Shown piece after piece: positions 47,723-48,595 of a stretch of 64,000 nucleotides of DNA. The notes beneath the pieces are model-generated. The model saw only the letters and a program-made list of their open reading frames with translations. It made no database searches and was not told where the DNA came from. The stretch spans positions 151,175 through 215,174 of the forward strand of contig CAVZSV010000007.1 of assembly GCA_963778115.1 (NCBI GenBank), written 5' to 3'. How positions within the stretch are numbered: the first letter of the stretch is position 1; each line of letters starts with the position of its first letter. A program made the position numbers and the translations under genes. The DNA is from an uncultured delta proteobacterium (GTDB lineage: Bacteria > Bdellovibrionota > FAC87 > UBA2466).

Positions 47723-48595
47723 GTGAGCCGATTCCGTAGGTCAGTAAAAGCCGAAAGAAAGATTCAAGCGCAGGTATTAGCGTACCTAGCTGTGATAGAG
47801 CAGCGAAAGATTTTTGCGGTAGAAGGGTATTCTTCTTTGTGTTGGTTTTTAGTGAAGGAGATGGGATATTCAGAGCCGACCGCTCTGAAGCGCATTCAAG
47901 TCGCAAGGTGTGCCATTAAGTACCCTAGGATTTATTGGTATCTTGAGAATAACAAAACTTCGATAACCGCACTCTCCGTTCTAGCTCCGCATTTAAATCA
48001 AAGTAATAACCAGAGGCTTTTAGAAGAGTGTTCGGGAGAGTCGGTCAGTAAAATCAAAGAAATCATTGTGAAGTATTATCCCAAGGCTGCGGTAGAGGAT
48101 AGTGTTCATAGCCGTATCTCGCCTATCAATATCGACTAGGTGAACATTACGTTTAGTGCGTCGAAAGCCTTTGCTGAGAAAGTAGAAAAAGCTAAGGCTA
48201 TCCTCTCTCACAAGCACCCCAAGGCCAGACTAGAAGACATCTTCAATGACGCGCTGGATGCGCTTCTTCAAAAACATGCTCCCAAAAAAGCTAGACACAC
48301 AAAGCAAACCTCTTCTTCACCACAGAGCCGCCATCTTCCCCAGGCAATCAAAAACGAAGTCAAAGAAAAATACGAGGGGTGCTGTTACGTTTCACCCTCG
48401 GGGGTTCGGTGTGGGGCAAAGCGCTTTCCCGAGACTGACCACATCATTCCCTGGGCTATGGGAGGTAAACATGAATCGAGGAATGTGAGGTGGCTGTGTA
48501 GCACCCATAATCAGCTGGAGGCGGATAAGTTTTTTGGGAAAGCTTGGATGGACAAATGCAGGGGGAAAAACAGGGCGGCGCTAACGGCGCAGTAG
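47723..48595 (+). pseudogene. DUF222-like / HNH endonuclease gene interrupted by in-frame TAG (48137-48139), apparently N-terminally short
   Basis: ORF track 47723..48139 and 48140..48595 share one frame and are separated only by TAG; second part carries the HNH block DHIIPWAMGG...WLCSTHN. Confidence 0.6.

Follow-up and report, generated by a model that had tools for sequence, protein, structure and literature searches.

Positions 47675-48595 (plus strand) of the window, by which we mean the whole 64,000-nucleotide stretch of DNA from an uncultured delta proteobacterium that was analysed, very probably represent a decaying pseudogene copy of a stand-alone multi-copy HNH endonuclease gene. Two disabling lesions are evident when this copy is compared with close homologues that are intact: the amber codon TAG stands at a Gln position and AGG at that of the start codon. 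A first reading of this DNA, which was made from the letters without database searches (sequence-only reading), had put a decaying pseudogene first among its options and these lesions speak for that choice. The appearance of two ORFs would come from the mutational decay of a single copy within a repeated gene family that is probably selfish. In the course of this decay, the start codon would have changed to AGG, Gln155 to TAG and a conserved Lys/Arg to Glu, and the damaged copy would be unable to make the fusion of DNA-binding domain and nuclease. In the annotation, a single pseudogene should replace the two genes. The locus should be counted neither as a recoding event nor as two novel proteins, and it matters little by itself.

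The upstream ORF starts with GTG at 47723, comprises 138 codons and is terminated by TAG at 48137-48139. The downstream ORF starts with GTG at 48140 directly after this TAG, comprises 151 codons and is terminated by a second TAG (48593..48595). Since the two starts are 417 nucleotides (139x3) apart, the ORFs 47723..48139 and 48140..48595 share one frame, and when we re-read the coordinates we arrived at the same picture of two same-frame ORFs that are parted by a single TAG. The frame is also open ahead of the annotated GTG, where it translates to ...VCRWRQDFIALSLNNSELV; it extends upstream to 47657 and the preceding stop is at 47654-47656. The gene is located between the complete minus-strand ORFs 44479..47052 and 48644..49567 with 625 bp of non-coding DNA upstream, and a second copy was not found within the window. 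Judged from the alignments described below, the two ORFs are pieces of one gene.

When we searched with the fused translation of the two ORFs, several proteins ran uninterrupted across the stop. These were P0001 (269 aa, 98% identity, E 6e-170), P0002 (314 aa, 57% identity, E 5e-104), P0003 (332 aa, 45% identity) and P0004 (334 aa, 37% identity), and P0005 and P0006 shared about 29% identity with the fused sequence. Because uninterrupted proteins match the fused translation over its whole length, the juxtaposition of the two ORFs is not a matter of chance, and the alignment to full-length members, which the sequence-only reading had proposed as a check, indicated homology that runs unbroken over the stop. 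At the stop itself, the window reads ...ISPINID-stop-VNITF... and all five near-identical copies read ...ISPINIDQVNITF... with Gln at this position. In 39 more distant relatives, the same column is occupied by R, L, K, Q or T and thus always by a sense residue. The ancestral codon at 48137-48139 was most simply CAG, which would have turned into TAG by a C-to-T transition. The GTG that follows the TAG opens the second ORF. In the alignment, it is a Val codon that all copies and most members of the HNH family have, which makes it an ancestral codon rather than a new start, and no Shine-Dalgarno sequence is found ahead of it.

The N-terminal half of the coding region (47678..48136, plus strand) comprises a helical, ParB/KorB-like DNA-binding domain, which is distantly DUF222-like, and the first strand of a beta-hairpin. 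The premature stop (48137..48139, plus strand) follows, and the C-terminal half (48140..48592, plus strand) contributes the second hairpin strand, two helices, a linker and a zinc HNH nuclease domain. In this half, the HNH match of Pfam covers 48407-48514 and the catalytic Asp-His pair is encoded at 48437-48442 (both plus strand). The downstream half exceeded the Pfam thresholds for both HNH_5 (PF14279; 29.3 bits, threshold 27.5) and HNH (PF01844; 25.7 bits, threshold 21.4), so that the HNH block recognised by eye in the first reading is also recognised by profile. The invariant columns of the family (C, C, D-H, G, C, H-N; ...ETDHIIPW...RNVRWLCSTHN) are all kept in the window.

For the upstream half, a resemblance to DUF222 had been proposed, and here the outcome was divided. 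Neither the N-terminal half of the window nor the fused protein matched DUF222 (PF02720) even at E<=1. At the level of the family, the proposal holds below threshold, since 8 of 40 relatives matched PF02720 at E<=0.01. The best match (P0256, residues 18-123 against profile positions 3-109 of 306) reached 24.2 bits with a cut-off of 24.4. By these profile scores, the N-terminal domain is a distant, sub-threshold relative of the N-terminal third of DUF222 and no member of this family by the Pfam rule. An AlphaFold model was made for the 57%-identical P0002 from a 40-sequence alignment (pLDDT 91, pTM 0.74). In this confident model, a helical domain spans residues 1-134 and is followed by a beta-hairpin at 147-159, a pair of helices at 164-201, a linker and an HNH domain at 224-290. 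The fold matches of the model were of the HNH and the ParB/KorB-like type; Foldseek against the PDB returned weak HNH matches only. The amber codon corresponds to Q155 of P0002 in the turn and second strand of the beta-hairpin. Since the stop is off any clean domain boundary, two independently folding products are less likely.

Homology to the full-length relatives begins at position 47678, both by tblastn and in the alignment. The N-terminus of P0007 reads M-WRQDFIALSLNDSELVSRFRR and the corresponding sequence of the window, starting at 47675, reads R-WRQDFIALSLNNSELVSRFRR (M-WRQDFIALSL vs. R-WRQDFIALSL). AGG at 47675..47677 (plus strand) is thus found under the Met of P0007, and it is also found under the ATG of L003, the locus of a Bdellovibrionota MAG that carries the 57%-identical homologue (the sequence of L008 is identical to L003). 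From this correspondence, we infer that the start codon was lost by a change from ATG to AGG. The Shine-Dalgarno sequence GGAGG (47665..47669, plus strand), 5 nt ahead of the ancestral start, has been retained with the sequence and spacing seen in L003; the DNA alignment places GGAGG-tactt-ATG of L003 and GGAGG-tttgt-AGG of the window at the same positions. The next in-frame start is the annotated GTG at 47723, and no Shine-Dalgarno sequence is found ahead of it. The sequence-only reading had considered this copy shorter than full-length members and had proposed to locate a missing N-terminus. Our data do not bear this out: the members of this subfamily comprise 300-335 aa, the window encodes the full length, and the N-terminus is present from 47678 with the start codon alone gone.

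Further upstream, at 47636..47653 (plus strand), we noticed a promoter-like block that consists of an A-tract followed by an extended -10 pattern (TG-T-TAGAAA, 47645-47653). It aligns with AAAACCCATGGTAGAAA ahead of the 57%-identical homologue in L003/L008. In general form, GAAAA, 3-6 nt and then an extended -10 (TGnTAnnAA), this block is located directly upstream of genes of the HNH family in several phyla. It was seen in MAGs of Bdellovibrionota, Eisenbacteria and Acidobacteriota, in Chloroflexota-related MAGs and in others, for example at about 590-610 in L003 and at about 2900-2950 in L017, L028, L032, L071 and L082. The block appears to travel with the HNH gene. At some loci, the start codon follows the block by no more than about 7 nt, and this spacing suggests a leaderless mRNA there. 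A pattern scan of the locus gave one promoter-like site, on the minus strand and not in excess of shuffled sequences, and no terminator-like site. Two other candidate features were dropped. An upstream hairpin (CCGTGTT...AACACGG), present in the window and L017 and imperfect in L003, is missing from most of the 35 loci inspected. An inverted repeat around the gene (47421-47438 / 48659-48676, 18 nt, 89% complementary) was rejected as element end and is probably a chance occurrence; it is rich in A/T homopolymers, its right arm is located inside ORF 48644..49567, and homology of the window to L003 starts only near 47630.

Seven proteins form the cluster of P0001 at 90% identity, among them the two fragments of the window, P0012 (138 aa) and P0009 (151 aa), which were deposited as two proteins on a 550,618-bp contig. 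The other members are P0007 (308 aa), a full-length copy on a contig of 550,618 bp, P0010 (292 aa, 565,862-bp contig), P0008 (246 aa, 772,519-bp contig) and the pair P0001 and P0011 (269 aa each, both on a 2,980,657-bp contig). A search for intact paralogues, as the sequence-only reading had suggested, was thus successful with the intact 308-aa P0007 and four more near-identical copies. Scans of the genome and metagenome contig collections with P0007 as query gave no relative. Including the window, six copies share 96-98% amino acid identity and are distributed over contigs of 2,980,657 (two copies), 772,519, 565,862 and 550,618 bp (two copies). The window carries DnaE, PyrG and pyruvate kinase and is ordinary bacterial chromosome. 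None of these three proteins has a partner of at least 90% identity on the 2,980,657-, 772,519- or 565,862-bp contigs, and no PyrG from these contigs was found among the 120 best PyrG matches, which reach down to about 62% identity. The closest PyrG matches share 81-88% identity, and those at 76-79% come from MAGs labelled Bdellovibrionota, Deltaproteobacteria or Proteobacteria. The absence of such partners is explained most simply if these contigs belong to the same assembly as the window. Under this most simple interpretation, the six copies would reside in one genome on contigs of a single assembly (about 4.9 Mb in total). The alternative would be very recent transfer between unrelated organisms, which would equally mark a propagating element.

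As annotated, the near-identical copies have one C-terminus in common and four different N-termini (308, 292, 269, 269 and 246 aa). By this pattern, P0007 may be the sole intact copy, and most copies would have lesions at the 5' end or be truncated there to differing extents. Moreover, the substitutions at W57, R245, A248 and V262 are distributed among the copies as a mosaic, a pattern which fits gene conversion. With its one intact copy and several broken ones that are nearly identical, such a genome would be a good place to find the element ends and the target site.

We then compared the window copy with the five paralogues and with the 39 more distant relatives and found five changes that are unique to the window: M1 to R (AGG), K122E, Q155 to stop, Q294K and a different C-terminal tail. 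K122E (48038-48040, plus strand) is located in the N-terminal half and was found in the window copy alone; the column is K or R in 35 of the 39 relatives. The divergent tail (48575-48592, plus strand) reads AALTAQ and is unlike every paralogue, since all five other copies end with PEQGQLLN. Decay can be recent at most because all catalytic and zinc residues of the HNH half and the promoter-like block are intact in this copy.

Four other explanations were weighed against this pseudogene interpretation. It is unlikely that the gene is intact in the cell and that TAG, perhaps together with AGG, is a consensus error introduced by mis-assigned reads of the other five copies. In favour of an error, repeat regions are prone to mistakes in assemblies and the HNH gene occurs in copies that are 96-98% identical; TAG is also one base away from the CAG that the paralogues predict, and the catalytic residues are all intact. 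However, at least three independent changes that are unique to the window (AGG start, K122E, TAG) would all have to be errors, in addition to the different tail. All changes are substitutions, and reads from the paralogues would pull the consensus towards the intact sequence. Because three independent damaging changes have accumulated in one copy, real decay is the better explanation than a single consensus error. That we deal with two unrelated neighbouring genes which happen to be in frame is hardly credible at all. The annotation of the depositors, who list P0012 and P0009 as two proteins, agrees with this idea, but six cluster members and thousands of relatives are single proteins whose alignment runs without a break over the junction. 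Unrelated halves, which the sequence-only reading had named as an outcome that would speak against it, were not what we found, since single proteins cover both halves.

A functional split of the gene is rather improbable. Here, the N-terminal fragment alone would act as nuclease-free regulator or inhibitor of the intact copies, and the HNH half might be made by termination-reinitiation at the GTG. TAG and GTG are immediately adjacent, the promoter-like block and the Shine-Dalgarno sequence have been kept, the N-terminal half has most of the predicted DNA-binding domain, the C-terminal half is a complete HNH, and the REP13E12 loci of M. tuberculosis are likewise often annotated as two genes. 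Against this scenario, the GTG is an ancestral Val codon without Shine-Dalgarno sequence, AGG occupies the ancestral start position, and no ribosome site precedes the following in-frame start at 47723. The cut is located within the beta-hairpin and not in a linker, and none of the 39 aligned homologues and none of the five near-identical copies is split at the TAG. Still less probable is programmed readthrough or recoding of TAG (suppressor tRNA, pyrrolysine or TAG as Gln) giving the full-length protein. Known TAG-to-Gln recodings insert Gln, and the paralogues carry Gln at the TAG position, but a simple CAG-to-TAG transition predicts the same. Among the 45 large ORFs of the window, 23 end with TAA, 13 with TAG and 9 with TGA, so that TAG is an ordinary terminator here; the readthrough option of the sequence-only reading is therefore left without support. 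In addition, the window holds no tRNA gene, no homologue has a stop at the TAG column, and the missing start codon would stay unrepaired. We thus retain the decaying pseudogene as the preferred explanation.

For the intact protein (about 308 aa), the model allows a conditional statement on function. The N-terminal helical domain of the ParB/KorB type would bind DNA and most likely select a specific site, and the zinc HNH domain (beta-beta-alpha-metal) would then nick or cut the DNA at or near this site.

The family to which the window copy belongs is large. With a cut-off of E<=1e-3, a profile built from six members retrieved 33,923 proteins from 1.84 billion 50%-identity representatives; 8,088 of these reached E<=1e-30, and the matches listed were full-length. 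In their sources, the relatives are named 'hypothetical protein', 'HNH endonuclease' or 'McrA', and longer members of the family have an added RuvA_C domain. Among the GTDB species representatives, the family was found in Bdellovibrionota, Eisenbacteria, Elusimicrobia, Myxococcota, Acidobacteriota, Chloroflexota-related MAGs and others, and multiple copies per genome were common. The sequence-only reading had described such genes as typically selfish or mobile, and the multi-copy, selfish-looking family agrees with this description as a putatively mobile one. In the contexts inspected, the genes stand alone without a conserved partner or neighbour. With crude ORF calling, both neighbours were co-oriented with the gene at 11 of 61 loci, and the same ORF calling gave a weak orientation bias downstream (43 minus vs. 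29 plus). Full-length relatives were found neither in phages or plasmids (tblastn) nor in the IMG/VR collections, where the matches were at the level of the HNH domain only. The HNH gene had no match among the PADLOC defence systems, and Rfam gave no match in the window at gathering and E-value thresholds and no group I/II intron.

The repeat character is most clearly seen in the Eisenbacteria MAG_AAO_H10.72. Its five paralogues (L017, L028, L032, L071, L082) have about 1.35 kb in common and their flanks are unrelated. This unit of about 1.35 kb comprises the gene and a highly conserved leader of about 190 nt, whose conservation exceeds that of the N-terminal coding region. At the other end, the copies cease to be similar 30-60 nt short of the stop codon and each copy has a private C-terminal tail, which parallels the odd tail of the window copy.

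A more far-reaching interpretation, which we put forward only tentatively, is that the window copy is the fossil of an active, uncharacterised one-gene mobile element (extended -10 promoter, ParB-like domain, HNH) which is widespread and copies itself to new chromosomal sites by repair of HNH-initiated breaks or by gene conversion. If this is true, the junctions of the element are marked by the C-terminal tails and the annotated 5' ends, both of which vary among the copies. In a narrower version of this idea, truncated copies like this one would keep the intact copies in check through a DNA-binding fragment that has no nuclease. Empty-site comparison with the relatives whose PyrG is 88% and 83% identical showed that synteny ends at about 40.2 kb, and no window gene from 40.4-57.8 kb was found there. 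The family as such is of modest interest as a very common stand-alone fusion of DNA-binding and HNH domains that multiplies in genomes of several phyla and has its own conserved promoter-like block.

The closest described analogue is the REP13E12/DUF222-HNH family ('13E12 repeat family') of Mycobacterium tuberculosis. REP13E12 occurs as several copies of a single-gene repeat, which is described as 'lacking defined biological function' and as a gene conversion hotspot; in annotations, a copy often shows up as a pair of neighbouring genes, for instance Rv0094c/Rv0095c (PMC10589994, PMC13061034); DUF222-HNH fusions are also mentioned in PMC3592412. Both families are single-gene repeats of about 1.3-1.4 kb with several near-identical copies per genome, although for the genome of the window this would hold if the contigs belong to one assembly. 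Both combine an N-terminal helical domain with a C-terminal HNH, have mosaic or gene-converted copies and give rise to two-ORF annotations, and some relatives of the window protein match PF02720 weakly across its N-terminal third. In contrast to REP13E12, the window protein is without DUF222 match and the best score in its family is just under the Pfam cut-off. Its subfamily is also shorter (300-335 aa) and belongs to Bdellovibrionota-like and other non-actinobacterial lineages, and neither a phage attachment site nor a prophage link was seen for the window family.

Among the closest known systems for the protein of this gene are also the helix-turn-helix DNA-binding domains of ParB, KorB, Spo0J and SopB. 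With the McrA-type HNH endonucleases (EcoKMcrA, ScoMcrA), about 100 residues align, which is essentially the HNH part. Unlike these enzymes, the window protein has a ParB/KorB-like N-terminal domain and no reader of modified cytosine or phosphorothioate. A restriction enzyme of the McrA type was rejected because the match is confined to the HNH part and there is no PADLOC match. Free-standing HNH homing endonucleases of phages and introns (GVE2 HNH, I-HmuI type) differ in that the window gene is chromosomal and intergenic, and an intron- or intein-borne homing endonuclease was rejected since the gene is located between complete ORFs and no intron RNA was detected by Rfam. IscB, the OMEGA RNA-guided nuclease (HEARO ORF), resembles the window protein weakly and in the HNH segment only. 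This segment gave the sole NCBIfam match (IscB, NF040563), which reached 19-21 bits with a cut-off of 175. IscB was rejected on account of this low score, the lack of a RuvC domain and the lack of a HEARO/omega RNA by Rfam.

As to the surroundings, the region 40400-57774 has no counterpart near PyrG of the two closest relatives available (PyrG 88% and 83% identical), whose gene order agrees with the window on the DnaE side and as far as about 40.2 kb. Most large ORFs of this region are without Pfam family, and the region may be variable or lineage-specific. Beside the pseudogene, ORF 44479..47052 (minus strand) encodes an 857-aa low-complexity protein rich in Pro, Ala and Lys, which has no Pfam family. 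At the left edge of the window, ORF 21-2342 (plus strand) encodes a Snf2-family helicase, with partial matches to the defence helicases ZorD, DrmD and DpdE that are all far under the curated cut-offs. Finally, a 46-nt block, CTCkTGCGyACyCCAACGCCAAAGG..CGTAAG.CCCCCCAAACCC, is present at 47358-47403 (plus strand) and at 6564-6609 (minus strand) with about 87% identity. We found no Rfam match and no folding signal for this block and no copy in the 87 loci examined. Both copies are intergenic and each is located ahead of a gene on the motif's own strand.
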